24,000 nucleotides of DNA, taken from assembly GCF_900890425.1 (NCBI RefSeq), contig NZ_CAAHFG010000004.1, forward strand, positions 218,798 through 242,797, read 5' to 3'. Source of the DNA: Pontiella desulfatans. Its GTDB lineage: Bacteria > Verrucomicrobiota > Kiritimatiellia > Kiritimatiellales > Pontiellaceae. Under the pieces are notes generated by a model, which saw only the letters and a program-made list of their open reading frames with translations, searched no databases and was not told the origin of the DNA. Numbering within the stretch: the first letter of the stretch is position 1; each line of letters starts with the position of its first letter. Positions 2,388-19,746 of this stretch are shown piece by piece. A program made the translations under genes and the position numbers.

Positions 2388-4010
2388 TTACCTTTTCAAT
2401 TCCTTCTTGAGCAGGCGGACGAATTTTTCGGTCGGCTTGTGCTCGGCGCCCATCATGCAGGCCTGGATCCAATTGCGTTCAAGCAGGTAGTGGCTGCGGT
2501 AGCTGATCAGCACGCCATGCGCCTTGAGCTTGTCGCCGATGGTTTCCGACGAATGGATCTCGGGAAGCGCAATGGTGATGACCGCAGGCATGGCGCAGGC
2601 GTCGGCGGCCAGAATCGGCGCGTCGATTTCCGCGAGCTTGCGGCGGATGGATTTCGACCAGTCGCGGACTTCGGCGAAGCGCTTTTCCCAGTCGTGCGAT
2701 TTAAGTGCGGCGAGCAAGGCGTAGACGAGGTTCGACTGGATGGTGAACGGGATGCCTTCGGCCTGCTGGTAGAGGCCGAGGTCGAGCGCGCAGGGGATAT
2801 CGTCGGGCGCGGGTTCGAAATCGTGGTTGTGGAACACCATGGAGAGCCCGGAAATCGAGGCCAACCCCTTTCCGCTGGTTCCCGAAGCCAGATAGACTCC
2901 GGAAAGATCGACCGCGACGGTGCCGATGGAGCTGATGCAGTCCATGCAGAGCTTGATGCCTTTCTCGCCGCAAACCTGCTTATACATTTCGATGTCGTTG
3001 AGGACTCCGGTGGAGGTTTCGCAGTGGGTTCCCCATACCCATTCGATATCGGGGTGGTCGCGGAGTTCCTTTTCCAGATCGTGGCGCATGAAGGCCTGCC
3101 CCTCGGGGATTTCCAACGTGTGGAAAAAGAGCTTGGCGCCGTTGGCGTTCTTGACGAGCCTGCGCCCGAATTCGCCGCTGACGAGAATGAGGCCGGTCTT
3201 GCAAAGCAACGACAATTGCGCGGCGACGGCGTCGTTGGCCAGCGTTCCGGGCCCCATGAGGATTTCAACCTGCTGCGCCCCGGTGAGGTCGCACAGCAAC
3301 CCGCGGGCTTTCTGGAAATCCTTTACGAAGGCGTCGCCTCGGTGGGAGCAGGGCTTTTCGTTATAGACCTCCTGCACCTGCTTGGCGAAATCGACCGGAC
3401 CGGGCAGGAAGTTGAAGAGCAGGGTGTCGTCGTTGGCCAGCTCCGGCTCGTCCTTGGCGAAGGAGCGGGAGCGCCCTTTCAGGTCCTTGTAGGCCTCGAG
3501 CGTGAGATACATGGGCTGGTATTGCGCATCCTCGGTGCCGACGAGGGGGCCGAAGGGAACGAAACCGAGGAACTTGTAGAGCTTGATCTGGCGGACGGTG
3601 CCGGAAATCACGGCGAGGTCGTGCCCGCAGTCGATGGCATGCTGGACGAGCGTGGCGATGAGCCCCTGGGAGATGCGGGTGTAGCGGAACTCCTCCTCGA
3701 CGGCGAGCAGGCGGATTTCGCACAGCGACCGGTCCGGGGGGAGGTAGGAATCGAGGTTGTCGAGCTTGCGGTCGAGCGAGAACGGGCGCTCGTCGCGAAA
3801 GGCGATCATACCGGCGAGGATTCGTTTTTCCTGATGAACGCAGATGATGTAGGTGTTCTGCTCGTGGAATTTATCGGCCAGCATCTTGTCGCGGTTGGGT
3901 TCGTGCTGCGGGATTTCCTCCACGAAGGTTTTATAGTTCAGCGCATGGACTCCCTCGATTTCCCAAGGTTGTTCCGCGATCTTGAAGATGAATCCATCGA
4001 GCAAACCCAT
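2388..4010 (-). CDS. Fusion protein: N-terminal GNAT-type N-acyl/acetyltransferase domain plus C-terminal class-V (AGXT/PhnW-like) PLP aminotransferase domain
   Basis: The N-terminal ~175 aa show GNAT-like features (EIRLLAVEEEFRYTRISQGLI...YKFLGFVP). The remainder resembles class-V aminotransferases (GPGTLANDAV, CETSTGV, candidate PLP lysine in ASGTSGKGLAS). A strong AAGGAGG SD lies inside the plsY 3' end. The ATG at 4008-4010 directly abuts the plsY stop. Confidence 0.7.
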   Translation of the reverse strand: MGLLDGFIFKIAEQPWEIEGVHALNYKTFVEEIPQHEPNRDKMLADKFHEQNTYIICVHQEKRILAGMIAFRDERPFSLDRKLDNLDSYLPPDRSLCEIRLLAVEEEFRYTRISQGLIATLVQHAIDCGHDLAVISGTVRQIKLYKFLGFVPFGPLVGTEDAQYQPMYLTLEAYKDLKGRSRSFAKDEPELANDDTLLFNFLPGPVDFAKQVQEVYNEKPCSHRGDAFVKDFQKARGLLCDLTGAQQVEILMGPGTLANDAVAAQLSLLCKTGLILVSGEFGRRLVKNANGAKLFFHTLEIPEGQAFMRHDLEKELRDHPDIEWVWGTHCETSTGVLNDIEMYKQVCGEKGIKLCMDCISSIGTVAVDLSGVYLASGTSGKGLASISGLSMVFHNHDFEPAPDDIPCALDLGLYQQAEGIPFTIQSNLVYALLAALKSHDWEKRFAEVRDWSKSIRRKLAEIDAPILAADACAMPAVITIALPEIHSSETIGDKLKAHGVLISYRSHYLLERNWIQACMMGAEHKPTEKFVRLLKKELKR

Positions 4011-4601
4011 TTATGCCTCCTTGGGGGGTAGTGCCTGGGCGAACGCCTTGCGGAGGCGCTCGCGGTGCGCGAAAAGTATGATGACCGAAGCGCCGGCCAG
4101 GGCAGCCACCGTGTGGCCGGGGAGCTCCACCGCGTAGGCCACCAGCGGCAAAAGTGAAAACGCCGCCAGCCCGCTAAGGATGAATCCGCGGCGGAACACC
4201 ATCAGTACCCCGGTGAGCACGAGCAACAGCAAGGCAATGAAGGGATCGTAGGCGAGATAGGCGCCGATGGCGGTCGCAATGCCGCGCCCCCCGCGGAACT
4301 GCAACGGCAAGGGCCAGATGTGGCCGGCAATGACCGCAACCAGCACGAGCGAAACCGCGGGTTCGGCAATCTCGAACCTACGGGCGAGCATGATGGCCAC
4401 AAGACCTTTAAGGGAATCGCCCAGCATCGTGACGATGAATCCTGGCTTGCCCAGCACCCGACCGACATTGCGGGCGCCAACCCCGCCGCTTCCGCACTCG
4501 CGGATATCCAGCTTTTCCTTGAACCGGACCAGATAATAACCGGTGCAGATTCCGCCTAGCAGATAGGCGACCAGGATACAGATGATGTCTTTGCCAGCCA
4601 T
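4011..4601 (-). CDS. plsY: Glycerol-3-phosphate acyltransferase PlsY (acyl-phosphate dependent)
   Basis: 196 aa polytopic membrane protein with PlsY motifs: GSGGVGARNVGR (GSGN.GATN-like), KG. and HIWP. GGGGAG SD upstream. Confidence 0.85.
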   Translation of the reverse strand: MAGKDIICILVAYLLGGICTGYYLVRFKEKLDIRECGSGGVGARNVGRVLGKPGFIVTMLGDSLKGLVAIMLARRFEIAEPAVSLVLVAVIAGHIWPLPLQFRGGRGIATAIGAYLAYDPFIALLLLVLTGVLMVFRRGFILSGLAAFSLLPLVAYAVELPGHTVAALAGASVIILFAHRERLRKAFAQALPPKEA

Positions 4602-4633: not shown

Positions 4634-4661
4634 ACTCTAACAGCGCACGAATCTTTTTCAA
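4634..4661 (-). promoter_or_regulatory. Sigma70-like promoter for plsY with an overlapping 12-bp palindrome
   Basis: On the minus strand: TTGAAA-N16-TAGAGT. The perfect palindrome AGTGTTAACACT (4625-4636) overlaps the -10/+1 region. The start codon is about 26 nt downstream. Confidence 0.35.
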
Positions 4662-4683: not shown

Positions 4684-6228
4684 CTAGCTCCCTGCCGTTT
4701 TGTGGCGGACTGCGGATTCGTACATCATTTCGTAGTTGGACTTTCCAACCTCGATGTTGGTGCGCTCGCGCAGGGCGGCATCGAGGCGGATCATCTGGAA
4801 CACCCCGTCGGCGAAGTCAAGGCCGGTCTTGGTGCAGCGGAAATAGTTCGCGTCCGCGAGTTTGAATTTAAGGATGAGGCGCAGGAGCCAAGGCGCCTTT
4901 TTCAACAAGCGGTCGACCTGCTCCCGCTTGTCCATGCCGGCGCTGTTTGCAAACCGGGCGTAGACATCGGGGGCCTTGAGCTTGTAGTCGGGATCCTTGA
5001 GCTTGAGGTTGTAGCGTTCCGGAAACTGGTCCATGCGGGAATTGGGCAGGAGGGAGAAGGGGCCGAAGACCACCATGCCCGGCTCCATTTCGACGAGCAG
5101 CTCAATGAGCCGGTCGATATCCGCAACGGTTTCGTTGGGATTGAGCAGCATGAAGCTCCAGCAGGAATGTATGCCGACGCGCTTGCACATGGCCTCGGTT
5201 TCACGCATGACGTCGAGGTGGGGCTTGCCATACATTTTCTGCGTGCCCTCGTTCGCGCTTTCGCCTCCGAAGAAGAGGCTGACGCAACCGCTTTCGTGCG
5301 CTTGGCGGAGGGTCTCCTCCGCATAGTAGGGGCGGAGGCCTTTCCAGGTTCCGGGCCGGGCGTAGCCCGTCCACTCAATCCCTTTGCCGGCAAACAGTTC
5401 GCTGAGCATCTCCATGCGCGAGGTGGGGTAGATGGAGGGATCGGTGACGACCATGTGGCGGAAGCCGAGTTCGTATGCCCGGTTGATTTCCTTTTCGATC
5501 TGGTCGCGCTCCTTCGTTCGCCGTGTTTCATACATGGCGGGCATTTCGCAGAAGGGGCAGCGGTAGGCGCAACCGCGCGAGGTCTCGATGTAGGCCACCG
5601 GAATCAGGCCTTCATTGATTTCGAAGTCGGGGATGGGCAGCAGGCTGAGGTCTTCGAGCACGGCCGGTTTTTTTGAAAGGTGCAGTTTGCCGGAGGAATC
5701 GCGGCAATAGATGCCGTCCGCCGCAGGATCTTCGCGATCAACCATGGCTCCGATTTCATCCGCATTGCCTTCGTGGCGCAGGATGGTTTCCAGGGCAATT
5801 TCGCCCTCGCCATAGACGAGGAAGTCGACGTAATCCGCGAAGCGGCCGCCCGTTTTTTTGGCCTTTGCGAGACGGTAGAAATCCTCCCGGAGGTTCCCGA
5901 GGCTCGGCCCCCCGACGATCACGGTCTTTCCGGGGAGCGTTTCCTTCAGGCGCTGGGTGGCTTCCTGCACGGGGAAGTGGCTGGAGAAACTCAGGTAGAA
6001 CCCGACGGCATCATAGTCGAACGCGGCCTTCAGCAAGCCCGCGACCCCGCCCCTATCCAAATCAAAGATGCCAACGCGGAACCCCTTGTTCTTGAGCCAG
6101 GAACTCAGCACCGGGATGGAAGGTTGCGGAAGATCCCGCACCATGTGGTAGCCATTGATTTCGTCGGCCTTGAAGAAGGCCTCCGCTCCGCCGACTATCG
6201 ATTTGACCAATAAAAGACTGTTCGCCAT
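4684..6228 (-). CDS. B12-binding-domain radical SAM enzyme (class B rSAM), substrate unknown
   Basis: Contains the CxxxCxxC motif (SRGCAYRCPFCEMP), preceded by a Rossmann-like N-terminal domain (VGFYLSF..., TVIVGGP, LVYGEGE) typical of the B12-binding rSAM architecture. GGAGAGG SD upstream. Confidence 0.8.
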   Translation of the reverse strand: MANSLLLVKSIVGGAEAFFKADEINGYHMVRDLPQPSIPVLSSWLKNKGFRVGIFDLDRGGVAGLLKAAFDYDAVGFYLSFSSHFPVQEATQRLKETLPGKTVIVGGPSLGNLREDFYRLAKAKKTGGRFADYVDFLVYGEGEIALETILRHEGNADEIGAMVDREDPAADGIYCRDSSGKLHLSKKPAVLEDLSLLPIPDFEINEGLIPVAYIETSRGCAYRCPFCEMPAMYETRRTKERDQIEKEINRAYELGFRHMVVTDPSIYPTSRMEMLSELFAGKGIEWTGYARPGTWKGLRPYYAEETLRQAHESGCVSLFFGGESANEGTQKMYGKPHLDVMRETEAMCKRVGIHSCWSFMLLNPNETVADIDRLIELLVEMEPGMVVFGPFSLLPNSRMDQFPERYNLKLKDPDYKLKAPDVYARFANSAGMDKREQVDRLLKKAPWLLRLILKFKLADANYFRCTKTGLDFADGVFQMIRLDAALRERTNIEVGKSNYEMMYESAVRHKTAGS

Positions 6229-6279
6229 TTCAGAAACCTCTCCGGGAATGTCCCCCCGCCGTTCACCAACATCTTAACT

Positions 6280-7896
6280 TCATACAAGGTTGTAGCGGCC
6301 GGGCGCGATAATATTGTTGGGATCGAGCACCTTTTTAAGATCGCGAACCGTTCGCCAGAACGGATCGTCTTCCCGGACTGTCCGCTCCATCGAGTTGATA
6401 CCCACCCGATACGGGGGATAGCCCATTTCAGTGTAGCGCGCCTCCATCTCCCTAATGCACTCATGCGCCTTCGCCGCCCGGGCAGCGTCGCGGCGGTCGA
6501 AGGAGAGGCTCACAACGCCCTCCACCGCCTTGGCGTTGATCAGGTTGACCGTTATCCCGGCCTCGAACCCATGCTTGGAAAAGGTTTCGCGCGTGGCCTG
6601 CACAACCTGCCGCACGGCCTCGCCCGTCGCCGGGATGATCGGGCAGCAAAAGAGCAGGCCGCAATTGGAGTGGTCGGGGTCGATCTCGTCCAGGTGCTGG
6701 AAATCGCCGGCCGACCAATAGAAACATTTCAAGGCGACATCCGTGGTTTCGCAGCAGGTGAGTCGATAGATCGGTTCAACCGCCTTGAGCATCATGAGCT
6801 GTGTGCGGACGGCGGGAATAAAGGTCAGCCTTTCCGCAATCCGTTTTGCCACATCCACGACGACATCGGAGAGGAACATGGTTTTGGCGAAGCCCCCGAC
6901 CGCCTTATGGATCTCCTTTTTCGCCAGCTTGAGCTGCCGCTTGGTGCCGAGGACCCCCAGCGAAGTGCTCCATGGGCCAAAGCCGCCCTGCTTCAGCATC
7001 TCGAGGGCCTTGGCCCGGGTCGCCTCGCCTTCCGGCTCGCCGGTTGCGGTCAATTCGTCGTAGAGCAACGGCGCGAGGGTTGCGTAGGTACGTTCGCGGC
7101 TCCCGATATGCGCAATGGTGTTCACCACCCCGCCCGAGCGCAACGCAACCAAGGCATCGATGAGCCGGGGAAAATCTTTTTCGTCGGCAATCTTGATGAT
7201 GGCCGCCATATGGCTTTCGGGTTTCGGCATGAGATCGATGCAAGCCGATGTGACGATGCCGAAGTTGCCTTGCGGAAACAAACCGGAGAGGTCGGGGCCC
7301 ACGCCATAACGGTATAGGTTTTGCGTTTTCGCCCCTTCGATGTGACCGAAACCGGTCTGGATCGTCTCCCCGTTTCCCAGCACCACCGTCAAGTTCGAGA
7401 AGCCTTCGGCACGGGGCTGGAAATAGCCAACGCCGCGGTCCATGGCATTGCCGATCAAGCTGGTGTCGGATGTCGATCCCGTCACGTTGAAGATGAGCGG
7501 AAGGTTGTTTTCCCTGATATGGTCCAACAGTTGCCGTTGCGTTACCCCCGGCTCGACGACCGCGTAGTGGTGCCGCGTGTTTACCTCGATGATCCGGTTC
7601 ATCCCGGCCAAATCGACAATGGCCGCCCCGTCCTTCACCGGAAGGCGCGAGCCCATGCCCCACTGCTTCCCGCAGCTGATCGGATATAGCGGCACCTTGT
7701 ATTCGTTCGCAATGGCCACAATACGCTGCACTTGTTGCTGCGTTGCGGGCTTCAGGACGGCAACAACATCGCGTTTGGAGGCACAGACCGTGCGGGTGTA
7801 GCTGGCCAGCTCCGTTGATTCGTGGATGACGGCATCCGCCCCCAACTCCCGCCTCCAGGTTTGGATGGCGGATTGCACGGAAGTGGGACTCGCCAT
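6280..7896 (-). CDS. FAD-binding oxidoreductase of the VAO/PCMH (vanillyl-alcohol oxidase / 4-cresol dehydrogenase) type
   Basis: The N-terminus has the PCMH-type FAD-binding pattern (VVAVLKPATQQQVQRIVAIANEYKVPLYPIS.G...G). It also carries YGVGPDLSGLFPQGNFGIVT and a C-terminal LDPNNIIAPGRY motif. Its start lies 3 nt after the upstream gene's stop. Confidence 0.75.
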   Translation of the reverse strand: MASPTSVQSAIQTWRRELGADAVIHESTELASYTRTVCASKRDVVAVLKPATQQQVQRIVAIANEYKVPLYPISCGKQWGMGSRLPVKDGAAIVDLAGMNRIIEVNTRHHYAVVEPGVTQRQLLDHIRENNLPLIFNVTGSTSDTSLIGNAMDRGVGYFQPRAEGFSNLTVVLGNGETIQTGFGHIEGAKTQNLYRYGVGPDLSGLFPQGNFGIVTSACIDLMPKPESHMAAIIKIADEKDFPRLIDALVALRSGGVVNTIAHIGSRERTYATLAPLLYDELTATGEPEGEATRAKALEMLKQGGFGPWSTSLGVLGTKRQLKLAKKEIHKAVGGFAKTMFLSDVVVDVAKRIAERLTFIPAVRTQLMMLKAVEPIYRLTCCETTDVALKCFYWSAGDFQHLDEIDPDHSNCGLLFCCPIIPATGEAVRQVVQATRETFSKHGFEAGITVNLINAKAVEGVVSLSFDRRDAARAAKAHECIREMEARYTEMGYPPYRVGINSMERTVREDDPFWRTVRDLKKVLDPNNIIAPGRYNLV

Positions 7897-7899
7897 GGT

Positions 7900-9090
7900 T
7901 TAGGCCTGAACCAGGGAATCGGGGCTGGAGAAGTAGCCCAGGGCCGTATGGGCCTGCGGCACGCGGACGGAAACGATGGTTCCTTCGCCCACCCGGCTTT
8001 CGAACTGGAGCGAGCCGCGATGCTCCTCAATCACCTTTTTCGTAATGAAGAGCCCGAGCCCCGCACCTTTTTCGATGGTTGCCGTGTTATCGAATGGCTC
8101 GAAAATCCAGCGCAGGCTCTGCGCATCCACCCCGCACCCGTTGTCCTTGACCTTGATATCAATATCATTGTTGCTGATTGCAAACAGAACAACGATGCAG
8201 GGGGAAGATTGCTGGTCCAAGGCCTCGACGGCATTGTCGATCAGATTCTGGAGCGCCCGCTTGACCTGCAGCCGCTCACCCAGCATTTCATACTGGTCTT
8301 CAATGCCCTCGACCTGCACCGAGAATGAAATGTCGGAATGGGCCGCGGCATCGCGGAAACAATCGTTGATCAGCTTTGGAAGGTTCAGGCGCTGAAGCTG
8401 CGAGAAATCGAAGCGCCCCAATGCCCGCCAAGACTCCACCAACTCGGCGCAACGCTCAACGTTGGTTTCAATTTGGTCGAGATATTCGTTCATCTCATCG
8501 GAGGTGGATTCCTGCTTTTCCTTCAGCTCATAGTTGAGCAGGTCAAGGTAGCCGCGGATAATCGTGAGCGGATTCCGCAAGTCCCGAACCAGCTCGGAGG
8601 AGGCCGCCCCGAGCGAGGTCAGCTTGTTGGTCTTCCCGACCTCGCGGCTGAGCGACTGCGTCATCTTGTTCAGCTCTTCCTGGGCCTGTTTCTTCCGCGA
8701 ATGCAGCTTTGAGCGATCAACATATTTTTTAACAACCGCCTGGATTTCGTCGGTATCGAACGGTTTCTGGAGATAGTCGTTGGCGCCAAAGCGGATCGCC
8801 TGCTGGGCCGTGTCCAGGTCGCCGTAGCCGGTCAGCATAACAATGGAGACATTGGGGTTGATTGCACGGATTTCCTGCAACCCCTCGATGCCGCTCTTTT
8901 CCGGCATCCGGATATCCATGATCACGAGATCGGGTTCCTGCTCCCGGAGCAGCTCGACCCCGGCGTCCACGCGATCGGCCAGAAACATGTCGTAATCGTA
9001 CTTGAGCACCATCCGCAGGCTTTCGCGCGGGCCGCGCTCGTCGTCGATCACCAACACCGTTCCCAACTTTTCCTTCGTCTCCGCAATCAT
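7900..9090 (-). CDS. Receiver (REC) plus histidine-kinase-like hybrid lacking the phospho-acceptor His
   Basis: The REC domain is canonical: VIDDE, LVIMDIRMP, MLTG, QKPF. The HATPase_c domain is intact: N box QNLIDNAVEA, DNGCGV, IFEPF, GAGLGL. The H-box reads SSELVRDLRNPLT, with Arg (CGG, 8584-8586) where His is expected. Confidence 0.8.
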   Translation of the reverse strand: MIAETKEKLGTVLVIDDERGPRESLRMVLKYDYDMFLADRVDAGVELLREQEPDLVIMDIRMPEKSGIEGLQEIRAINPNVSIVMLTGYGDLDTAQQAIRFGANDYLQKPFDTDEIQAVVKKYVDRSKLHSRKKQAQEELNKMTQSLSREVGKTNKLTSLGAASSELVRDLRNPLTIIRGYLDLLNYELKEKQESTSDEMNEYLDQIETNVERCAELVESWRALGRFDFSQLQRLNLPKLINDCFRDAAAHSDISFSVQVEGIEDQYEMLGERLQVKRALQNLIDNAVEALDQQSSPCIVVLFAISNNDIDIKVKDNGCGVDAQSLRWIFEPFDNTATIEKGAGLGLFITKKVIEEHRGSLQFESRVGEGTIVSVRVPQAHTALGYFSSPDSLVQA

Positions 9091-9099
9091 GGTAGTTTC

Positions 9100-10314
9100 C
9101 TAAAAAGACAAGGAATATGTCACAGATGCCAGGTTGGAATCAACATCATAAGTGCCGTTCGCCGTTTCCCGGTCATCGTAGATGCTATAGGCATAACCCA
9201 AGTCCAGCGTGTGCATGCCCAGGGAGTAGCCAATACCGAAACTGAGGATGTGGCGATCAAGGTCGGGGAGCAAAGGCGAAGCTGAGCTATCGGGAATGGG
9301 AGACGGCAACCAGGTATAGCCCGAACGCACAGCCAAACCATCGATGATTTCCCAGTTGACGCCGGTGTTGATGGAGTAGGAATCGTCCCAGTTGTTTTCC
9401 AAGACGAGCTGGCTTCCTCCCGCATTGATTGTTTGCGTCTTGTTCACCGACCACTCCAACCACTCGAACAGAGCCTCCAGCTGCACGTTTCCGGGAAGCG
9501 CGATACCGTATCCGATTCCAATGGTGTTCGGATATTTTAGCGTGGTCTCGAACTCGCCGGTGTTGGGGTAGGAAGCCGCAAAGTCGCCTTTGTATTTCAC
9601 ATCCACGCGGCTGCGGTAGGTCAGCGCCACGCGCTGGTTTTCCGTTGGCAACCAGGTCAGGCCCACGTTGCCGCCAATGCCCCAGCCATCGCCGGAGCCC
9701 TCCACATCATATGGAGACATCGGATCGGCAACCGGATAAAGATTTGGAAAGAGGGCTTTCATGGAAAAATCCGAATAGAAAATATCGCCGCCGATGCCGA
9801 AATAGACAGAATCATGGAGCTTGAAGGAAGCCGTTGGATTAAAGTTCACCAAAAGAACCTCGGCCTCGTAGGGAACCGGCTCGGTTACACCAGTCATGGG
9901 GTTGACTAGGTCTGTCTTGTTCCAGGATACACTCTGGCCATACGGGGTGCTGATGCCTAAACCGACCACCAGCCCCTTCACGCCAACAGGCTGCGAGTAG
10001 AAGAGGTTCGGCAAGACATTCCAAGGATCATCCGACTTCAATTCATAGCCCGGAGCGGGTTCATAGGTGATTTCCGACTGGGCAAACGTTGCCGCCAACA
10101 CCAAAGAATGATCTTCTTGCATGGCCAGGTTGGCCGGATTGTAGAAGATGGCCGAAGCATCGTCCACAAACGCCGAGTGGGCGCTGGATTTGCCGAGACC
10201 CTCCGCGGTCGGCGGTGGATTCCGATAGCCATCCGCGTAAACATCGCCGACCATGGCGATAGGCAACGCACTGAGCAAAACCATCCTACACAAGCGCTTA
10301 CTATTTGTTTTCAT
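9100..10314 (-). CDS. FadL/TodX/OmpP1-family outer-membrane channel for hydrophobic compounds
   Basis: I start it at the internal ATG 10312-10314 (MKTNSKRL...), which has a GGGAGAAG SD and a signal peptide (LLSALPIAMVGDVYA/DG). It carries the FadL-type N-terminal motif (DDASAIFYNPANLA). It is a Gly/Tyr-rich barrel ending in ...TYSLSF. Confidence 0.75.
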   Translation of the reverse strand: MKTNSKRLCRMVLLSALPIAMVGDVYADGYRNPPPTAEGLGKSSAHSAFVDDASAIFYNPANLAMQEDHSLVLAATFAQSEITYEPAPGYELKSDDPWNVLPNLFYSQPVGVKGLVVGLGISTPYGQSVSWNKTDLVNPMTGVTEPVPYEAEVLLVNFNPTASFKLHDSVYFGIGGDIFYSDFSMKALFPNLYPVADPMSPYDVEGSGDGWGIGGNVGLTWLPTENQRVALTYRSRVDVKYKGDFAASYPNTGEFETTLKYPNTIGIGYGIALPGNVQLEALFEWLEWSVNKTQTINAGGSQLVLENNWDDSYSINTGVNWEIIDGLAVRSGYTWLPSPIPDSSASPLLPDLDRHILSFGIGYSLGMHTLDLGYAYSIYDDRETANGTYDVDSNLASVTYSLSF

Positions 10315-10361
10315 ATCTTCTCCCTTAGTTCGGCTAGTTGAATTTGAACCACTCAAGTGAT

Positions 10362-10377
10362 AGCAACAGACGTGCCA
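10362..10377 (-). promoter_or_regulatory. Sigma54 (-24/-12) promoter for the FadL-like operon
   Basis: The minus strand reads TGGCAC-GTCTG-TTGCT, an exact TGGCAC-N5-TTGC consensus with GG-N10-GC spacing. The predicted TSS is near 10351, giving a leader of about 37 nt before the ATG. Confidence 0.75.
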
Positions 10378-10419
10378 CTTGTCAGTAAGTTTTTTCGTCC
10401 ATAGGTTGTGTAATAATTC

Positions 10420-10448
10420 TTGATATATACAACATATTGACATTTAAT
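10420..10448 (+). promoter_or_regulatory. Sigma70-like promoter for the ketosynthase/kinase operon
   Basis: TTGATA-N17-TTTAAT in a very AT-rich divergent intergenic region. An alternative TTGACA (10437-10442) is also present. Confidence 0.4.
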
Positions 10449-10449
10449 G

Positions 10450-10465
10450 TGTACAAATTTGTACA
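10450..10465. promoter_or_regulatory. 16-bp perfect palindrome TGTACAAATTTGTACA (TGT-N10-ACA), candidate enhancer/operator
   Basis: Perfect dyad. Its centre lies about 105 nt upstream of the predicted sigma54 TSS on the minus strand. It lies immediately downstream of the plus-strand -10 element. Confidence 0.55.
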
Positions 10466-10540
10466 GGAATGGGTTGCGGGCTTTTTAAGCCGCTTGGTTT
10501 CCAGAGTCTGGAATACCAATTTCAACGGGGGTTCAGGCGC

Positions 10541-11776
10541 GTGATCGGCAGAAACAGAGTAGTCATTACCGGCTTGGGGGTGCTCGCCGCCAACGGCATT
10601 GGCAAGGAGGCCTTCTGGAAGTCCCTCCTAGCCGGCGAGTCCGGCATCGGCCCCATCACCCAGTTCGATGCGAGTGAAATACCTTGGCAGATTGCTGGAG
10701 AAATCGACGGCTTTTCACCAACTGATTTCATTGATCCGAGTCTTAAGCCCAAAAGACAAAGTAGAAATACACAGATTGCCGCAGCAGCCACCGTCATGGC
10801 ACTTGAAGACGCAAAACTGTCCATGGATTCCTTGAAAAAGGTCGAACCCGTGCAAATCACACTTGGCATTAGCCTTGGGGGGCTCGATTTGGTGGAACAA
10901 CACACACGAAGGCTTGTCGAAAAGGGAGCCATGAAGGGACTGCCGACGGTTTCCGCGTGTGTGCACATTATCGCGTCGAGTTTCATCTCCGCCCTCCTCA
11001 AAGTGAAGACACAGATCAATGTTGTTTCGAACAGTTGCACAGGCGGACTTGATGCAATCGCCGCTGGAGCCGCAGCGATTAGACGCGGCGAAGTGGAATT
11101 GGCGATAGTAGGAGGAACCGATGCTGTCATCATACCTTCGGTTGTTACAGGATTAGGTTTTGCTGGCATGTTGACCGACAGTCACGATAATCCTAAAACC
11201 ATTAGCCGACCCTTTGATCTGACAAGGTGCGGAGGAGTGCTGGCGGAAGGCACGGGTATCGTGATCCTTGAAAGCCTAAATCATGCTCGAGAACGTGGAG
11301 CCCGGCAATATGCAGAAATCAGTGCCCATGGAACAGCAAGTGGCATCAACATGCAATTGCATGAGGGACTGGAAACCAGCATGCGGCGGGCAATGAGCAA
11401 TGCAGGTCTCTATCCACAAGACATATCCAACATCAACGCCCATGGCACCAGCGATCCGGATTTGGATATTGCGGAAACCGTGGCGATAAAGAATGTTCTT
11501 GGGAGCCACGCTTATAATATCCCCATCAACTCCATTAAAGGATCAACGGGAAATCCTTTAGCCGCAGGCGGTGCCCTCCAGGTCATTTCCAGCTGCCTTT
11601 CAATGGAGGTCGGCATAATACCTCCGACAACGAACCTTAGAGTACCTGATCCCGATTGTGATCTTGATTATGTCCCCGAAACACCCCGCCACTTTGAACC
11701 TTCTGTTACGTTGATTAATAGCCATGGCACAGGCGGAGTGAACAGTTCTATGGTCTTGGAGAAAATTAAACAGTGA
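10541..11776 (+). CDS. FabF/FabB-type beta-ketoacyl synthase, orphan, with a Cys-His-Asn active-site pattern
   Basis: Motifs: RVVITGLGV, active-site NSCTGG, NAHGTS, and SIKGSTGNPLAAGG (Asn where FabF has His). I prefer the GTG at 10541 (GGGGG about 10 nt upstream; N-terminus MIGRNRVVITG). The ORF track's ATG at 10469 is the alternative. The stop overlaps the next gene's start (GTGA). Confidence 0.8.
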   Translation: MIGRNRVVITGLGVLAANGIGKEAFWKSLLAGESGIGPITQFDASEIPWQIAGEIDGFSPTDFIDPSLKPKRQSRNTQIAAAATVMALEDAKLSMDSLKKVEPVQITLGISLGGLDLVEQHTRRLVEKGAMKGLPTVSACVHIIASSFISALLKVKTQINVVSNSCTGGLDAIAAGAAAIRRGEVELAIVGGTDAVIIPSVVTGLGFAGMLTDSHDNPKTISRPFDLTRCGGVLAEGTGIVILESLNHARERGARQYAEISAHGTASGINMQLHEGLETSMRRAMSNAGLYPQDISNINAHGTSDPDLDIAETVAIKNVLGSHAYNIPINSIKGSTGNPLAAGGALQVISSCLSMEVGIIPPTTNLRVPDPDCDLDYVPETPRHFEPSVTLINSHGTGGVNSSMVLEKIKQ

Positions 11777-14283
11777 TCCTAATCACACTACTTCTTATCT
11801 TGGCTATTGTGGTCAACCTTGGACTGGGCACTACGGTATACCTCACCAATCGGGCAAGAAAAGCGAACCAAAGTTATCTGGTTGCAACAATCTTTATGTC
11901 ACTGTGGCTCAGTGCCAATCTTATCATTCTCCATTCCACATCCGCCCACCTAGCTCACATAGGCATCGATGCCGCATCGGCTTTATCTGTTTGCATTCCA
12001 ACAACATTCCAGTTGCTTCGCCTTACGATCAAGTTTCCCGAATACTCTTGGAGATCGGTGCTGACCAGGTGCCATAAGCAAATTCTTTTCAATATTATTA
12101 CCGTTGCAGTCTGCTTCACGCCCTCATTCAGCCAATCAGTCATTCTTCCCGAACCAGGCGAACCGGGGCTGGTTCAACCAGTATATGGACCAGCCTTTCT
12201 CGTTTTCCTCGTATACATGCTTTCTTCCATAGCAGTGCTTGGATGCGGGGTTTTTAAAGACAGAAAACAAATTAGGGGAACACAACGACTAGAACTGGAA
12301 TTCCTCCTATTCGCCTGTCTGGCAGGTCTTAGCGTAGGCATCTTCCTAGGGACGGTTGTTTCACTGATCTCAAAATCATACAACTCAATCCCAATTGCAA
12401 ATTCTGCAAGCGTTTTCACAGTATCCATCATCGTTGCGTATGGCATAGCCATGCATAAAATCCTGACCGTTTCGACGCTCTTACGCAGATTCACCGCCTA
12501 TGCCCTGATCACGGTCTACCTAAGTGTGGTATATTTTATAACAGCAAGCATAATGCGATTCGCCTGTGAAGCACTTGAAATATCCATGACATTCCCCATT
12601 CATTTAACTTCGGCTCTTGCCGTAGCTTTTTCCATGCTTCCGGCCAGATCACGAATGCAGAAAGCAACAGACCTTCTATTTGGAGGAACAAACTACTTTA
12701 ATGTCCAGGACACGGTTCGAAAAGCCAGCGACATCTTCCAATCCGTTACAACAATAACCTCTCTGCTTGATCATTTCTCAAACTTACTCGTTAGTGCTTT
12801 CGGAACGGAGCGCGTTATAATTCTTACCGCTACCGACGGTGGATATAAGCAACAATACCCCTACCCTCTTGATAATGCTGTTTTCTTTTCTGAAAATAGT
12901 GCCTTGGTAGGAATGCTGGAAAGAAACCGAGATCCCGTCTGTGCAGAAAGCCTGCTACGTATCCGGGAGACCTCGGAAATCCATGACACGATCAAGAATC
13001 TCAAATCTTCTGATGCAAACATAGCGACAGGTGTTTTCTCAAAATCAAAATTGAATGGCATTGTTTTATTCGGAACGCGACACAAAGGCCGTATTTACGA
13101 CAAAACCGAGCAGGATGCGATTCAAATCCTCTGCAACCAATTTGCCGTGGCCTTTGAAAACGCCCAGCTTTATACCGAAATGCAGGATAGCAAAATCCGC
13201 AACGAAATCATGCTCGATCAGCTCGTGAGTGGTGTGATTGTTGCCAGCCCTGACCGGAAAATCACCCTGTTCAACCATGAAGCACAACGCATAACCGGCA
13301 TCGTCGAGTCGGAAGCGATCGGCCAGAACATCGACATTCTTCCCAAAGCCATTGCCATGGCTCTGGAAGAAACGTTGGAAGACAAAACCGGGCTCCGCAA
13401 TATCGATGCATCCCTCTATTCACCGGAAGTGAGGGAGGAAAGCGTAAGCATCCGGATGGGTTCCGCCTTCCTGTTCGGCCACGACGATAAACCCATGGGA
13501 GCCTTGCTCGTTTTCACCGACACTACCGAGTTGAAGGGCCTGGAAGAACAAGTCCGGCGCTCCGACCAGTTATCCAGCGTCGGTACGCTGGCCGCCGGCA
13601 TGGCGCATGAAATCAAGAATCCGCTCGTCACCATCAAAACCTTCACCCAGCTGCTGCCCAAACGATACGACGACGAAGATTTCAGACAGGAGTTTTCCAG
13701 CCTGGTTGCCCACGAAGTCTCGCGTATCGACGGCATCGTGAACGAGCTGCTCAGTTTCTCCAAACCGGCCAAACCGCACCTGGTCCCGATGAAACTCCAG
13801 CATACGATCGATCAGATCCTCAAGCTGACCCATGAGCAGATGGTGCAAAGCAACATCCAGCTCAAGAACAAATGCACTGCCGAAAACGACATGATCTTCG
13901 GCGATGCCAAGTTGCTTTCCCAAGCATTGATCAACCTCAACCTGAATGCGGCAGAGGCCATTGGCGAGGGCGGGACGATCACCGTTGGAACCCTCAATTG
14001 CACCTACCGGTTTGCCAATGGCGACTCTCCGGAGCATGCCAAAACCAAGCACTGCATCCGGCTGCAGATCACCGACACCGGCAAGGGCATCGAGCGCAAG
14101 GATCTCCAAAAAATCTTCGATCCATTCTTCACTAGCAAGAGCGAGGGCACCGGCATGGGGCTTTCCGTCGCCCATGGCATCATCAACGAACATCACGGGG
14201 TGATCGAGGTGGAGAGCGAACCCGGACTTGGCACCACGTTCTACGTCTACATCCCCTTGCTTGAGGAGGGTATTGCTTCATGA
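11773..14283 (+). CDS. Polytopic-membrane sensor histidine kinase (about 8-9 TM helices, GAF, PAS, HisKA, HATPase_c)
   Basis: By eye there are eight to nine hydrophobic helices in aa 1-290. A GAF-like segment ends ...FAVAFENAQLY. A PAS segment follows (VSGVIVASPDRKITLFNHEAQRITG). The H-box is MAHEIKNPL (His codon 13606-13608). N/G boxes: NLNLNAAEA, DTGKGI, GTGMGL. GGAGA SD lies 10 nt before the GTG. Confidence 0.85.
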   Translation: MILITLLLILAIVVNLGLGTTVYLTNRARKANQSYLVATIFMSLWLSANLIILHSTSAHLAHIGIDAASALSVCIPTTFQLLRLTIKFPEYSWRSVLTRCHKQILFNIITVAVCFTPSFSQSVILPEPGEPGLVQPVYGPAFLVFLVYMLSSIAVLGCGVFKDRKQIRGTQRLELEFLLFACLAGLSVGIFLGTVVSLISKSYNSIPIANSASVFTVSIIVAYGIAMHKILTVSTLLRRFTAYALITVYLSVVYFITASIMRFACEALEISMTFPIHLTSALAVAFSMLPARSRMQKATDLLFGGTNYFNVQDTVRKASDIFQSVTTITSLLDHFSNLLVSAFGTERVIILTATDGGYKQQYPYPLDNAVFFSENSALVGMLERNRDPVCAESLLRIRETSEIHDTIKNLKSSDANIATGVFSKSKLNGIVLFGTRHKGRIYDKTEQDAIQILCNQFAVAFENAQLYTEMQDSKIRNEIMLDQLVSGVIVASPDRKITLFNHEAQRITGIVESEAIGQNIDILPKAIAMALEETLEDKTGLRNIDASLYSPEVREESVSIRMGSAFLFGHDDKPMGALLVFTDTTELKGLEEQVRRSDQLSSVGTLAAGMAHEIKNPLVTIKTFTQLLPKRYDDEDFRQEFSSLVAHEVSRIDGIVNELLSFSKPAKPHLVPMKLQHTIDQILKLTHEQMVQSNIQLKNKCTAENDMIFGDAKLLSQALINLNLNAAEAIGEGGTITVGTLNCTYRFANGDSPEHAKTKHCIRLQITDTGKGIERKDLQKIFDPFFTSKSEGTGMGLSVAHGIINEHHGVIEVESEPGLGTTFYVYIPLLEEGIAS

Positions 14284-16271
14284 AAACCCTACCGTCATGC
14301 ATCCTATACAGCCGCGACGACGAACTCACCGGACGCCTGATCCGCATCTCGACCTCCGTCGTCGCCCTCCAGCTTATCGAGGAACCGGTCGACCTTGAAC
14401 AGTGGATCGCCCAATTTGGCGATACGGTGCTGCTTGCCGATCTACGGGCAACCAACTGCCTCGACATGCTTGCATCCATCCGGAAGGAAAAGCCGGCAAC
14501 CATCATCATTCCCATTGGAGCCGACCGGTCCGACCCAATGCTCGCGGTTGAGTGGCTCGAGCCCTTTGCCACCTTATCGCTCGAACCCGACCGCCGCGAA
14601 TTCCAGACCCTGCTAAAACAGGCCGTCGAATGCCTGGCCCTCCGCCAGAAAAACAAGGTGCTCGAGGAGGAGCTGGCGACCTTGAACGCCCGCAAGGTCG
14701 AGCAACGCCCCCAACCGCGCACCCTCTTCTCCGCCCCGCTGCAGAACTTTTCCAAAGCACAGCGGAATTTCGACAACATCGACATGCTGTTCGACAGTGT
14801 TGTCGAAGGCCTTGTTGCGACGGCACGCGTATCGCGCGCGGGCATTTTCATCAAGCCCGATTCGGGCGACGCATATCTCTACAAGGCCGGAACCCGCTGC
14901 CTGGCAACCACGGAAAAACTGCGAGTCCGGCCGGACAGTCCGTTCGTGCGCTGGCTGGAAATGAACACGCATCTGGTATCGCGCAAGACGCTCGAAAACG
15001 TTGCCGACCCCCAGGAACGCGCAATGCTCAAGCAGATGCTCGACTCGCTCGGCGCGGAAATCATCATCCCCCTATACGCAACCGGATGCATCAAGGGCTG
15101 GATCTTCGTCGGCCAGCGCTCCACCGGCATCCCGTTCGATATCGCCGACCTCGAAGACATGACCGGCCTGGCCGACCACATTTCCACCACGCTCGAAAAG
15201 GCGCTCAAGTACGAGGAAACCGCACTCCAGAAAGCCCTCGCCGAAACGGTGCTGCACACCATTCCGTTCGGCATCATCGCCTGCGACGAACATGCCATCC
15301 TGCGCTGGTTCAACACCACCGCGCGCGAAATCCTCAAACCGCAAAGCGAAGTCGTCATCGGCCAGCGCGCCGAAGTGCTGGGCAGCCGGATTGCAGACAT
15401 GCTCCGAAGCGCCGTCGGCGGCCAGCACATGCCCTGCACCAAGGAATGGACCGACAACCGCACCAAACTAACACTCGCCGCAGAAACACACTGCCTAACG
15501 GATGGCGGCTCCTGCGTCGGCGCCATGGTCATGCTACGCGATGTCACTGGCGTTAAGCTGCTCAAGGAAAAGGAAGAGCAGGTTGAGCGCGCCACCTTCT
15601 GGAACGAACTCGCCTCGAGCATGAGCCACGAAATCCGCAACCCCCTCGTGGCCATCAAGACCTTCTCGCAGTTGCTGCCTCAGCGATACGAAGATCCCGA
15701 TTTCCGCGCCGAATTCAGCAAACAGGTCACCACCGAGGTCGACCAACTCAACCAAATCATCGACAAGATCAACGAGTTCGCCAATCCGCCCAAACCCATC
15801 TTCCAACCCCTCGATATCCGCAAGCCCATCGAGCACGCCGTCACACGGATCCAATCTGAACTCAACCACGACAATCTCAAAATCCACCTCTCGGCCGACG
15901 AAACCGCCCTCCAGATCAATGGCGACACCACATCCATGGAGGAATGCATCTACCACCTGCTCAAGAACGCGGCGGAAAACCTCGCCAACAAACCCGGCTC
16001 GCGCATCAACGTCACGGTCAAAGGGCGCTCCCCCGAGAAGGGATCCGGGAACATCTACATCATGGTCACCGACAACGGCAGCGGGATCGACCCTTCGTTG
16101 CGCGACAAGATATTCTCGCCCTTCATCACCATCAAGGCGCTCGGCTTCGGCCTCGGCCTGCCGATCGCCAAACGCGCGGTCATCGACCACAACGGACAGA
16201 TGGACATCGAAAGCAGCTCCGGCGGAACCACTGTATCCATCACCCTCCCCGCCTCGGAGGAACAGGAATGA
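14280..16271 (+). CDS. Cytoplasmic sensor histidine kinase (degenerate receiver-like N-terminus, GAF, PAS, HisKA, HATPase_c), paralog of the preceding kinase
   Basis: ATGA overlap with the upstream stop, and a GAGGAGGG SD. The H-box MSHEIRNPLVAIKTFSQLLPQRYEDPDFRAEFS (His codon 15627-15629) is near-identical in pattern to HK1. N/G boxes: LLKNAAENL, DNGSGI, GFGLGL. No TM segments. Confidence 0.85.
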   Translation: MKTLPSCILYSRDDELTGRLIRISTSVVALQLIEEPVDLEQWIAQFGDTVLLADLRATNCLDMLASIRKEKPATIIIPIGADRSDPMLAVEWLEPFATLSLEPDRREFQTLLKQAVECLALRQKNKVLEEELATLNARKVEQRPQPRTLFSAPLQNFSKAQRNFDNIDMLFDSVVEGLVATARVSRAGIFIKPDSGDAYLYKAGTRCLATTEKLRVRPDSPFVRWLEMNTHLVSRKTLENVADPQERAMLKQMLDSLGAEIIIPLYATGCIKGWIFVGQRSTGIPFDIADLEDMTGLADHISTTLEKALKYEETALQKALAETVLHTIPFGIIACDEHAILRWFNTTAREILKPQSEVVIGQRAEVLGSRIADMLRSAVGGQHMPCTKEWTDNRTKLTLAAETHCLTDGGSCVGAMVMLRDVTGVKLLKEKEEQVERATFWNELASSMSHEIRNPLVAIKTFSQLLPQRYEDPDFRAEFSKQVTTEVDQLNQIIDKINEFANPPKPIFQPLDIRKPIEHAVTRIQSELNHDNLKIHLSADETALQINGDTTSMEECIYHLLKNAAENLANKPGSRINVTVKGRSPEKGSGNIYIMVTDNGSGIDPSLRDKIFSPFITIKALGFGLGLPIAKRAVIDHNGQMDIESSSGGTTVSITLPASEEQE

Positions 16272-16480
16272 AAACGCCCAAGGATATCCAGAATGCAGAG
16301 GGCCCAATCAACCTCGAAGAAGCCGTCGGGGATTTCGAACGCAACCTGATCGAGCAGGCGCTCGAAAAATGCAACGGCATCCAAACCCGGGCCGCGGAAC
16401 ACCTTGGCACCACCCGCCGCATCCTCCGCTACCGCATGGACAAACTCGGCATCAGGCCCCAGCGCGGCAAACATCCATAA
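16268..16480 (+). CDS. Stand-alone Fis/NtrC-type helix-turn-helix protein (70 aa)
   Basis: ATGA overlap with the HK2 stop. The sequence FERNLIEQALEKCNGIQTRAAEHLGTTRRILRYRMDKLGI matches the C-terminal HTH_8 pattern of NtrC-family activators. It lies in the same frame as listed ORF 15944-16480, but the upstream part of that ORF overlaps HK2. Confidence 0.7.
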   Translation: MKTPKDIQNAEGPINLEEAVGDFERNLIEQALEKCNGIQTRAAEHLGTTRRILRYRMDKLGIRPQRGKHP

Positions 16481-18198: not shown

Positions 18199-19422
18199 AT
18201 GGAATCACCATCCATAGTACCGAGCGATGTCATCCTCGAAAGCATATCCGACGGCGTGTTCACGGTTGGAAACGACTGGCGCATCGCCTCGTTCAACCGG
18301 GCGGCGGAACAGATAACCGGCGTTCCGCGCAAGGAGGCCATTGGACGGCTCTGCTCGGAAGTATTCCGCTCCAGCATGTGTGAAGGCGCCTGCGCACTGC
18401 GCAAAACCCTCGAGACCGGCCAACCGCTCATTGCCCACGCCTGCTACATCGTCAACGCCGATGGCGAGCGCATCCCCGCAAGCGTCTCGACCGCCGTGCT
18501 CAAAGATGAAGCCGGCAACATGATCGGGGGGGCCGAAACCTTCCGCGACCTCAGCGAAATCGAAACCCTGCGCAAACAAATCTCCGGCCGCTACACCCTT
18601 GGCGACCTCATCAGCCACAGCCACGCCATGCAGCCGGTCTACGAGATGACCTCCTCCGTCGCCAATTCCAACATCACCGCCCTCATCCATGGCGAAACCG
18701 GCACCGGCAAGGAGTTGCTCGCCAGAGCCATCCACGGCATGAGCCCCCGCTCCGCCAAACCCTTCGTCGCCATCAACTGTGCCGCCCTGCCCGACACCCT
18801 GCTCGAATCCGAACTCTTCGGCTATAAAAAGGGCGCCTTCACCGGCGCCGTGCAGGATCGCGAAGGCAGATTTGCCCAGGCCAGGGACGGCACGGTCTTC
18901 CTTGATGAAATCGGCGAAATCAGCCCCGCCCTGCAGGTGCGGCTGCTTCGCGTCTTGCAGGAACACACCTACGAACCGCTCGGCAGCAACGAAACCCGGC
19001 GCACCGAGGCCCGCATCATTGCCGCCACGCACCGCGATCTCTCCGCGTTGGTTGAAAGCGGCGAATTTCGCGAAGACCTCTTCTACCGCATCAATGTCAT
19101 CCGCATCGACCTCCCCCCCCTGCGCAGCCGCAAGGAAGACCTTCCCCTGCTCATCGACCACTTCATTGAACGCTTCAACCGCATTCACAACAAAAACATT
19201 GCCGGGCTATCCAACGGGGCCAACTCGTTGCTCATGGCCCACGACTGGCCGGGCAATGTCCGCGAGCTCGAAAACATCGTCGAGCGCGCCTTTGTCCTAT
19301 GCAATGGCACGCAGATTGAAATACGCCACCTCCCCCCGGTGGGCAGCCGAGCCCCCGCCACCCCGAACATCTACCCGACATCGGCACCGCCCGCCGTAGC
19401 GCCGAAGCCCGGACTATTTTGA
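18199..19422 (+). CDS. Sigma54-dependent enhancer-binding protein (PAS plus AAA+), reading frame interrupted before its HTH
   Basis: PAS domain with four Cys. Walker A GETGTGKE, sigma54-contact loop GAFTGA, and [10 protein letters not shown]. The ORF ends in a low-complexity Pro/Ala tail at TGA 19420-19422 with no DNA-binding domain. Confidence 0.85.
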
Positions 19423-19731: not shown

Positions 19732-19746
19732 TGGCACCGTTGTTGC
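19732..19746 (+). promoter_or_regulatory. Sigma54 (-24/-12) promoter for the NifX-like/MinD-ferredoxin cluster
   Basis: TGGCAC-CGTTG-TTGC(T), an exact consensus with GG-N10-GC spacing, in the intergenic region directly downstream of a sigma54 activator gene. Confidence 0.7.

Follow-up and report, generated by a model that had tools for sequence, protein, structure and literature searches.

Among flavoproteins in the family named after vanillyl-alcohol oxidase and p-cresol methylhydroxylase (VAO/PCMH), FeeG of the fee cluster from environmental DNA and CndG (chondrochloren) belong to the 4-phenol-oxidising subgroup and carry out the oxidative decarboxylation of N-acyl-tyrosine via a quinone methide, the N-acyl-tyrosine itself being made by FeeM (PMC11350588, PMC11959600, PMC8762209). 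In the planctomycete Stieleria, which like the bacterium considered here belongs to the Planctomycetes-Verrucomicrobia-Chlamydiae (PVC) group, N-acyl dehydrotyrosines are C-methylated on the ring (PMC7293339). The present analysis concerns a 24,000-nt stretch of the Pontiella desulfatans genome (hereafter the window; contig NZ_CAAHFG010000004.1, positions 218,798 to 242,797 of the forward strand) that contains an operon encoding a FadL-family channel, a receiver/histidine kinase hybrid (REC/HK), a divergent VAO/PCMH-family flavoprotein and a class-B radical SAM enzyme (rSAM). A first-pass annotation of this DNA had grouped the channel, the flavoprotein and the rSAM as a trio that would either transform an imported hydrophobic or phenolic compound anaerobically or tailor a lipid.

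Comparison with related loci shows that Pontiellaceae and related PVC bacteria share a conserved operon, driven by sigma54, of FadL, REC/HK and flavoprotein genes, which is always divergent from an operon that encodes a ketosynthase (KS) and kinases. The channel, the cresol-type oxidase and the rSAM do not constitute a conserved anaerobic aromatic pathway. As for function, the chances are judged about even that the locus is a regulated cassette which makes or tailors a hydrophobic N-acyl-amino-acid-like lipid or signal, with the rSAM acting as a strain-specific C-methylase; this reading is drawn from sequence comparison and gene context.

The conserved channel, receiver/kinase and flavoprotein operon

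The gene array of the window was established from a listing of open reading frames and from Pfam and NCBIfam scans; the host genome has a size of 8.66 Mb in six contigs and is 95% complete. The operon lies on the minus strand and comprises the genes for the FadL/OMPP1/TodX-family outer-membrane channel (9100 to 10314; 404 aa), the soluble REC/HK with receiver, HisKA and HATPase domains (7900 to 9090; 396 aa), the flavoprotein (6280 to 7896; 538 aa; FAD_binding_4 and FAD-oxidase_C) and the rSAM (4684 to 6228; 514 aa; B12-binding and Radical_SAM). The intergenic gaps of 9, 3 and 51 nt reported in the first-pass annotation were confirmed by the open reading frame listing, and the second gene, left unnamed there, is that of the REC/HK hybrid. 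The FadL/TodX, VAO/PCMH and class-B rSAM assignments also held at the family level in the light of Pfam, NCBIfam and PDB matches. The channel scores 151.5 bits with Pfam Toluene_X (cut-off 29.7) and 98 bits with the NCBIfam FadL equivalog (cut-off 585), so that its membership is at the family level only; it displays a signal peptide (MKTN...VYA, followed by DG) and, in FYNPANL, the NPA hatch motif. The longest open reading frame would begin at 10443, but the start at 10314 is preferred because this ATG is preceded by a AAGGGAGAAG ribosome-binding site and opens the signal peptide.

An exact sigma54 -24/-12 element (TGGCAC-N5-TTGC; TGGCACGTCTGTTGC) occurs at 10363 to 10377 on the minus strand, upstream of the FadL gene. 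In shuffled sequences this motif was matched 0.09 times per window on average and none of 100 shuffles contained two matches, as the window does. A GGCA-N7-TGCT element was present upstream of the FadL gene in all 15 related loci inspected, 58 to 76 nt before the start codon where this was measured, and is accompanied in these loci by a strongly conserved upstream block. The single sigma54 promoter proposed ahead of the operon is thus supported both by the exact element and by its conservation.

Of 52 congeners, 36 have the flavoprotein gene, in a single copy per genome, and so does the only further genus of Pontiellaceae included in the search; the gene was not found in the other families of the order. 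The gene order is constant in ca. 30 loci compared with flanks of 1.5 kb and in 14 compared with flanks of 20 kb: FadL, REC/HK and flavoprotein genes run in one direction and, divergently, the KS gene is followed by that of kinase 1 and, where the array extends further, by those of kinase 2 and a Usp protein. The FadL gene precedes that of the REC/HK in all relatives in which the contig is long enough. Across the genus, identity amounts to 75-91% for the REC/HK, 58-75% for the flavoprotein and 43-69% for the channel. The core made of KS and kinase 1 on one side and FadL, REC/HK and flavoprotein on the other also occurs in metagenome-assembled genomes (MAGs) of PVC bacteria, including a Lentisphaeria MAG, whose flavoproteins are 45-50% identical to that of the window; the same core, together with both kinases and Usp, is found on a metagenome contig with a flavoprotein of 62% identity. 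Synteny of the KS and the membrane kinase 1 with the FadL operon therefore extends through Pontiella and the 45-50% PVC group, while kinase 2 was confirmed in Pontiella loci and in the locus L055. A different setting was observed on a Lentisphaerota contig (L054, 5817-9985), where a flavoprotein homolog of 61% identity follows genes for a 7TMR-DISM/PAS/SpoIIE phosphatase, a STAS protein and an NMT1-type binding protein; judging from these predicted domains, this neighbourhood is a partner-switching and not a two-component context.

Asp59 in the receiver domain of the REC/HK does not vary among the orthologs, and the window protein has intact ATP-binding motifs. The H-box is invariant except at the phospho-acceptor position (SELV-R-DLRNPLTIIRGY), where the window protein has Arg169 (codon at 8584 to 8586) and the 34 orthologs have Arg (24), His (9) or Asn (1). 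The hybrid may thus not work as a classical kinase.

The divergent operon (10469 to 16480, plus strand; Pfam assignments) encodes the FabF-fold KS (10469 to 11776), the membrane PAS kinase, a soluble kinase and a 70-aa Fis-type helix-turn-helix (HTH) protein, the KS being co-operonic with the two kinases. The KS has a Cys190-His325-Asn362 triad in place of Cys-His-His, and its orthologs carry Asn (24/27) or Ser (3/27) at the third position; no gene for an acyl carrier protein, a ketoreductase or a dehydratase was found near it. The region from 9100 to 14283 forms a trough in GC content at third codon positions (GC3), with values of 0.66 for FadL, 0.52 for KS and 0.58 for kinase 1 against 0.76-0.83 in most neighbouring genes.

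The flavoprotein and its association with FeeM-family genes

The flavoprotein matches PF01565 with 82 bits and PF02913 with 22 bits. Its best relative of solved structure is PchF, the flavoprotein subunit of PCMH (PDB 1DII/1WVE; E 3e-67), followed by VAO and eugenol oxidase (E 1e-41 to 1e-45); an identity as alkyl-dihydroxyacetone phosphate synthase, the ether-lipid enzyme, was ruled out (E 2e-6). Active-site residues were mapped through the alignment with PchF, whose numbering is followed, and compared in 116 homologs. Of the triad that binds the phenolate (Tyr95, Tyr473 and Arg474 in PchF; Tyr108, Tyr503 and Arg504 in VAO), the last two are retained as Tyr496-Arg497 while the first is replaced by Met81. 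This position is occupied by Met in 115 homologs and by Leu in one, and the Tyr-Arg pair is kept. The acid next to the flavin N5 (Asp170 in VAO, Glu177 in PchF) corresponds to Glu164 in the window protein and to His (83), Asp (17) or Glu (10) in the homologs. With regard to the sites of covalent flavin attachment, the equivalent of VAO His422 is Leu414, and the region of PchF Tyr384 is unalignable owing to an insertion in the cap. The FAD-binding core is highly conserved among the homologs, and conservation extends to much of the substrate cap. The protein thus has the FAD_binding_4 and cap fold, though it lacks the full triad of 4-phenol-oxidising enzymes.

Relative to PchF, it shares the fold, the Tyr-Arg pair and the Glu (Glu177/Glu164) but differs by Met81 in place of Tyr95, by a cap insertion of ca. 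34 residues, by having nothing aligned to Tyr384 and by the long branch that separates the two. PCMH is a periplasmic enzyme in which PchF is paired with the cytochrome PchC, whereas no signal peptide was detected in the sequence of the window flavoprotein and no cytochrome gene was found among the open reading frames of the window scanned against Pfam. In the phylogenetic tree, flavoproteins of PVC bacteria, Cyclobacteriaceae and Betaproteobacteria form one clade (100/100) apart from PchF and 9fge. The kinship with VAO/PCMH enzymes proposed initially therefore stands, but a position inside the PchF/9fge branch does not, nor does one with alkyl-dihydroxyacetone phosphate synthase.

Within that clade, the PVC flavoproteins of named genomes uniformly display WG(M/L)GS, while the betaproteobacterial homologs (35-38% identity) have WGYGS and keep the N5 proline, the Asp/Glu and the Tyr-Arg pair. 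The view that the Met variant is common to all 501 pattern-matched genomes was thus wrong, since these betaproteobacterial homologs, which were retrieved with a second search pattern, keep the Tyr. They are located in XrtA/PEP-CTERM loci together with genes for PrsT, a chain-length determinant, a TIGR03016 outer-membrane protein and PEP-CTERM proteins, as well as LolCE-like ABC transporter, LolA-like and DUF1302 genes. A strong FeeM-family synthase (PF21926, E 1e-44 to 1e-52) was detected by BLAST in 11 of 22 such loci, to which a profile search adds a twelfth. The window locus resembles these XrtA/PEP-CTERM N-acyl amino acid synthase loci in having a homologous flavoprotein and a FeeM-family gene, but their flavoproteins keep Tyr-Tyr-Arg, the Pro and the Asp/Glu, and no PEP-CTERM gene lies near the window operon. 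The exosortase gene of the host genome is on another contig.

In the window, the PF21926 match belongs to a FeeM-type GNAT fused to a class-V aminotransferase (GNAT-AT; 2388 to 4010, minus strand; 41.5 bits for a cut-off of 27, plus Aminotran_5) and lies two genes downstream of the flavoprotein (one or two genes downstream in Pontiella). Its gene abuts that of a PlsY-like acyltransferase paralog (4011 to 4601, minus strand; 196 aa; Pfam G3P_acyltransf), which falls below the cut-offs of the NCBIfam PlsY models (113 vs 199 and 111 vs 137). Within the genus, the flavoprotein and the GNAT-AT occur together in 27 genomes, the former alone in 9 and the latter alone in 6, while 10 genomes lack both; GNAT-AT is thus present in 27 of the 36 flavoprotein-positive congeners. 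In one MAG of Cyclobacteriaceae, the start of a flavoprotein gene of the Leu variant shares 14 nt with a FeeM-family gene. The product of this FeeM-family gene (L106:7908-8966) was also observed to carry an N-terminal extension of ca. 160 aa that is receiver-like by eye. Altogether, FeeM-family genes adjoin flavoprotein homologs in three phyla (Pontiellaceae, Betaproteobacteria and the Cyclobacteriaceae MAG), and because this adjacency recurs, an N-acyl-amino-acid-type substrate is the best lead for the flavoprotein clade. The likeness to the FeeM/FeeG and CndG systems, drawn from gene context and published descriptions, lies in a VAO/PCMH-family flavoprotein encoded close to a FeeM-family GNAT; the differences are the Met at the first phenolate position and a GNAT that is fused to an aminotransferase and belongs to a separate transcription unit.

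That unit starts with the PlsY-like gene, 82 nt downstream of the rSAM gene, and is preceded by a sigma70-like promoter found by consensus scan (TTGAAA-N16-TAGAGT; 4634 to 4661, minus strand) and a GGGGAG ribosome-binding site. This block is conserved in every relative, whether a flavoprotein or an rSAM gene precedes it, in agreement with the reservation made earlier that a separate promoter may serve plsY. The proximity of plsY had also been taken as a pointer to lipid tailoring, but it amounts to adjacency to a separate transcription unit.

The radical SAM gene and its variable slot

At E<=1e-30, the rSAM was detected in none of 60 relatives, nor in any of the 80 named loci that a flavoprotein profile retrieved. 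A search of 5.8 billion proteins yielded ca. 24 relatives with at least 52% identity, the next match having 26%. Three metagenome contigs, with an rSAM of 68-70% identity, keep the order REC/HK, flavoprotein, rSAM, and one of them runs on into the PlsY-like gene. These are the only places where rSAM orthologs adjoin the flavoprotein outside the window, so that the supposed channel, flavoprotein and rSAM pathway is not a recurring one. In the tree, the window rSAM, the three sequences of these contigs and a further one, whose contig is too short to reveal neighbours, form one clade (100/100), and the family as a whole sits on a very long stem. Homologs of ca. 54% identity stand alone among unrelated neighbours, without VAO or FadL genes, and the two with source names come from Chloroflexota. 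The loci of two stand-alone homologs (L002:5142-11551, in a record named Chloroflexota, and L005:10001-12333) were inspected: one homolog lies downstream of genes for a GH3-type acyl-acid amido synthetase, a kinase and a receiver, another adjoins a PEMT/ICMT-type methyltransferase gene, and from their predicted products these neighbours offer faint hints at acyl-amide substrates.

A recent foreign origin is not apparent from composition: the GC3 of the rSAM gene (0.78) lies within the range of 0.76-0.83 of most neighbouring genes and thus matches the host, which indicates that its acquisition was not recent. Distribution and phylogeny show the rSAM to be an accessory gene, acquired once, as far as these sequences tell, by a small Pontiella sub-lineage. 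Since relatives share the promoter block of the PlsY-like gene whether or not they carry the rSAM, the latter lies between the stop codon of the flavoprotein gene and that promoter, which marks the downstream edge of a variable slot. The rSAM gene is preceded by a ribosome-binding site of its own and by no terminator that could be recognised, which places it in the predicted sigma54 transcription unit. The flanking gaps of 51 and 82 nt, the latter corresponding to the conserved promoter, leave no room for a precursor-peptide gene beside the rSAM; a cluster for a ribosomally synthesised and post-translationally modified peptide is thereby ruled out, as had been anticipated from the lack of a suitable open reading frame.

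Elsewhere, the slot that follows the flavoprotein gene is occupied by a convergent gene for a short-chain dehydrogenase/reductase (SDR; two genomes), a convergent gene for a U32-family protein (two genomes, including P. sulfatireligans) or, on one contig, a co-directional gene for a 7-bladed lactonase-type propeller, and it is empty in several genomes, among them that of P. agarivorans. These U32-family, SDR or lactonase-type slot genes were located at L040:11331-12572, L030:3120-4214, L041:8215-9096, L048:11040-11879 and L055:11639-12760. Relatives of U32 proteins include O2-independent hydroxylases. Another B12-binding rSAM, of 489-490 aa, is encoded upstream of the KS in two Pontiellaceae genomes (L043:13612-15081 and L053:14132-15604); homology with the window rSAM was ruled out, as the two share 22% identity over the core and belong to different families.

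The CxxxCxxC motif of the rSAM (C220-x3-C224-x2-C227) is invariant in 20 homologs. PF04055 is matched with 61 bits and the cobalamin-binding PF02310 with 25.2 bits, under its cut-off of 32.1; an AlphaFold2 model (pLDDT 78) shows an N-terminal beta-alpha (Rossmann) domain. The top Foldseek matches of this model are TsrM, TokK, MgmA and CysS (TM-scores of 0.51-0.58), and the dehydratase AprD4 is also among the matches. According to the model, the window rSAM would share with TsrM, TokK, CysS and MgmA the N-terminal Rossmann domain, the CxxxCxxC radical SAM barrel and a C-terminal domain, but identity is only 14-16%. Among curated NCBIfam models the best is that of the PhpK family (80 bits vs 600), all others giving at most 60 bits for cut-offs of 250-775; scores this far below the cut-offs rule out the PhpK, HpnR, HpnJ, BchE, BzaD and ladderane families and those of the peptide C-methylases. 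The enzyme is hence probably of the class-B type, as first proposed, but it belongs to an isolated clade of ca. 24 members that has no curated subfamily and does not fall within any named one.

Proposed function and alternative readings

In the proposed cassette, the FeeM-type GNAT, possibly with the KS and the PlsY-like protein, would supply an acylated molecule, which the cytoplasmic flavoprotein would dehydrogenate in parallel with FeeG and CndG. This step would take place without O2: P. desulfatans is an obligate anaerobe and O2 is therefore an unlikely acceptor, unlike in the FeeG/CndG setting. The gene in the slot would add a strain-specific decoration, by cobalamin-dependent C-methylation in the window and by a U32-type, SDR or lactonase-type step in sister genomes; the product or signal would cross the outer membrane through the FadL channel, and the kinases, the REC/HK hybrid and sigma54 would control the operon. 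A role of the cobalamin rSAM as an anaerobic C-methylase of an N-acyl-amino-acid-type molecule is plausible from its modelled fold, and it is probably a strain-specific tailoring enzyme that decorates a lipid-like signal and not an enzyme of aromatic degradation. Of the two functions initially envisaged, lipid-like tailoring is hence favoured, while catabolism of an imported phenol is disfavoured by Met81, by the failure to find the reductases considered below and by the signalling partners.

Several observations weigh against such a cassette. Nine flavoprotein-positive congeners have no GNAT-AT, five of them being at least 92% complete, and P. sulfatireligans retains only the aminotransferase half. 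No FeeM gene was found within ca. 9 kb in the 45-50% PVC group, and the GNAT-AT unit is driven by its own promoter. The PVC clade is devoid of the first Tyr of the phenolate triad and is variable at the acid/base position, so that a tyrosine-type substrate is uncertain. The presence of AprD4 among the fold matches means that the rSAM could catalyse a rearrangement instead of a methylation. Synteny within one genus, finally, is partly inheritance and not independent evidence, and the weight of the case is for this reason placed on the distant PVC loci and on the FeeM association in three phyla.

A more far-reaching version of the cassette, considered doubtful, is a quorum-sensing kind of system undescribed in PVC bacteria. 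The KS and/or the FeeM-type synthase would make an N-acyl-aromatic lipid, which would be oxidised by an O2-independent dehydrogenase of VAO fold whose phenolate site is altered, and a dedicated FadL would let it pass; the tandem kinases, the His-less receiver/kinase hybrid and sigma54 would read it, and interchangeable slot enzymes would write strain "dialects", one of them founding a new family of cobalamin rSAM C-methylases. By analogy only, the window locus recalls the phc-type cassettes of Ralstonia, which consist of a signal synthase, a sensor kinase and the receiver/kinase-like regulator PhcR: the gene of an enzyme that forms small molecules, here that of the KS, is co-operonic with sensor kinases, and a receiver/kinase-like hybrid is also encoded, but the enzymes are different. 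If the proposed cassette as such is real, the flavoprotein clade would gain a function across Kiritimatiellota, Lentisphaerota and other PVC lineages, FeeG/CndG-type chemistry would reach strict anaerobes in which O2 is excluded as electron acceptor, and a small isolated family of cobalamin rSAM enzymes would acquire a testable substrate class. The cassette would also point to regulated signalling by lipids in marine polysaccharide degraders, a group for which we know of no signalling chemistry.

The best placed of the alternatives, possible but clearly less probable than the cassette, is a signal-sensing module in which the flavoprotein would mainly sense a ligand or the redox state, or inactivate a signal, on behalf of the sensor-less REC/HK, with FadL admitting an external hydrophobic cue and the rSAM being a passenger with an unrelated substrate. 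Consistent with this, the flavoprotein gene starts 3 nt after that of the REC/HK, the pair being adjacent throughout the PVC group, the phospho-acceptor of the latter is Arg, His or Asn, a Lentisphaerota homolog adjoins the STAS and SpoIIE partner-switch genes, the catalytic acid/base position varies while the FAD-binding core is highly conserved, and other rSAM homologs have unrelated neighbours. To our knowledge, however, a VAO-fold sensor is without precedent, conservation includes the Tyr-Arg pair and a large part of the substrate cap, and the recurrence of FeeM-family neighbours in three phyla speaks for an enzymatic role. Moreover, the rSAM gene comes immediately after that of the flavoprotein in four independent sequences and has a ribosome-binding site of its own in each.

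Bulk remodelling of membrane lipids, by which the PlsY-like protein and the GNAT-AT would make an aminolipid and the flavoprotein and rSAM would modify membrane lipids, for instance by methyl branching or desaturation, is improbable. It could account for the PlsY paralog and the OlsB/FeeM-type GNAT (Acetyltransf_5, FeeM) directly downstream, for the adjacent FabF-like KS and for weak NCBIfam matches of the rSAM, which include ladderane-associated, HpnR and HpnJ models, but these lipid-rSAM models give no more than 46 bits for cut-offs of 360-650. The PlsY-like unit has its own promoter, and the match of the flavoprotein to the ether-lipid synthase is far inferior to that with PchF. Furthermore, the rSAM is missing from nearly all congeners and cannot therefore serve a core membrane function.

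Regarding phenol degradation, the best match to 4-hydroxybenzoyl-CoA reductase (TIGR03194) in the host genome reached 185 bits for a cut-off of 995 and there was no match to the B subunit of benzoyl-CoA reductase (TIGR02260), the class II (Bam) reductase not being included in the search. Published work on a flavoprotein linked to anaerobic benzene degradation deals with GlcD-like proteins and has no bearing on the present enzyme. Catabolism of an external 4-alkylphenol or cresol, imported by FadL/TodX, hydroxylated on its side chain by a PCMH-like dehydrogenase and further transformed by the rSAM, would fit the closest solved relatives of the flavoprotein, the FadL/TodX family of the channel and sigma54 control, which is common in aromatic catabolic operons, but it is unlikely and ranks last given the nearly invariant Met at the phenolate position, a flavoprotein outside the PchF/9fge branch for which neither the cytochrome c partner nor the signal peptide of a periplasmic PCMH was found, the reductases not found in the genome and an operon set among signalling and lipid genes, whose constant partners are signalling proteins and the KS.

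Beyond the divergent KS-kinase operon, Pfam scans identified genes for Usp, BioB and a PAS-AAA+ sigma54 activator (18199 to 19422). The activator, of 407 aa, has no detected HTH and is encoded 2 kb beyond the 70-aa protein (16268 to 16480), which consists only of a Fis-type HTH_8 domain and follows the second kinase; from their predicted domains, the two together look like a split enhancer-binding protein. Of five relatives checked, one has the PAS-AAA+ ortholog in synteny and two complete ones lack it, and a role of this protein as the conserved activator of the FadL promoter is on this account not supported. The second exact sigma54 motif of the window (TGGCACCGTTGTTGC; 19732 to 19746, plus strand) is located just 3' of this activator gene. 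Finally, at the other end of the array, a terminator-like hairpin was detected by scan at 2368 to 2385, between the convergent GNAT-AT and RdgC genes, where it may act as a bidirectional terminator.

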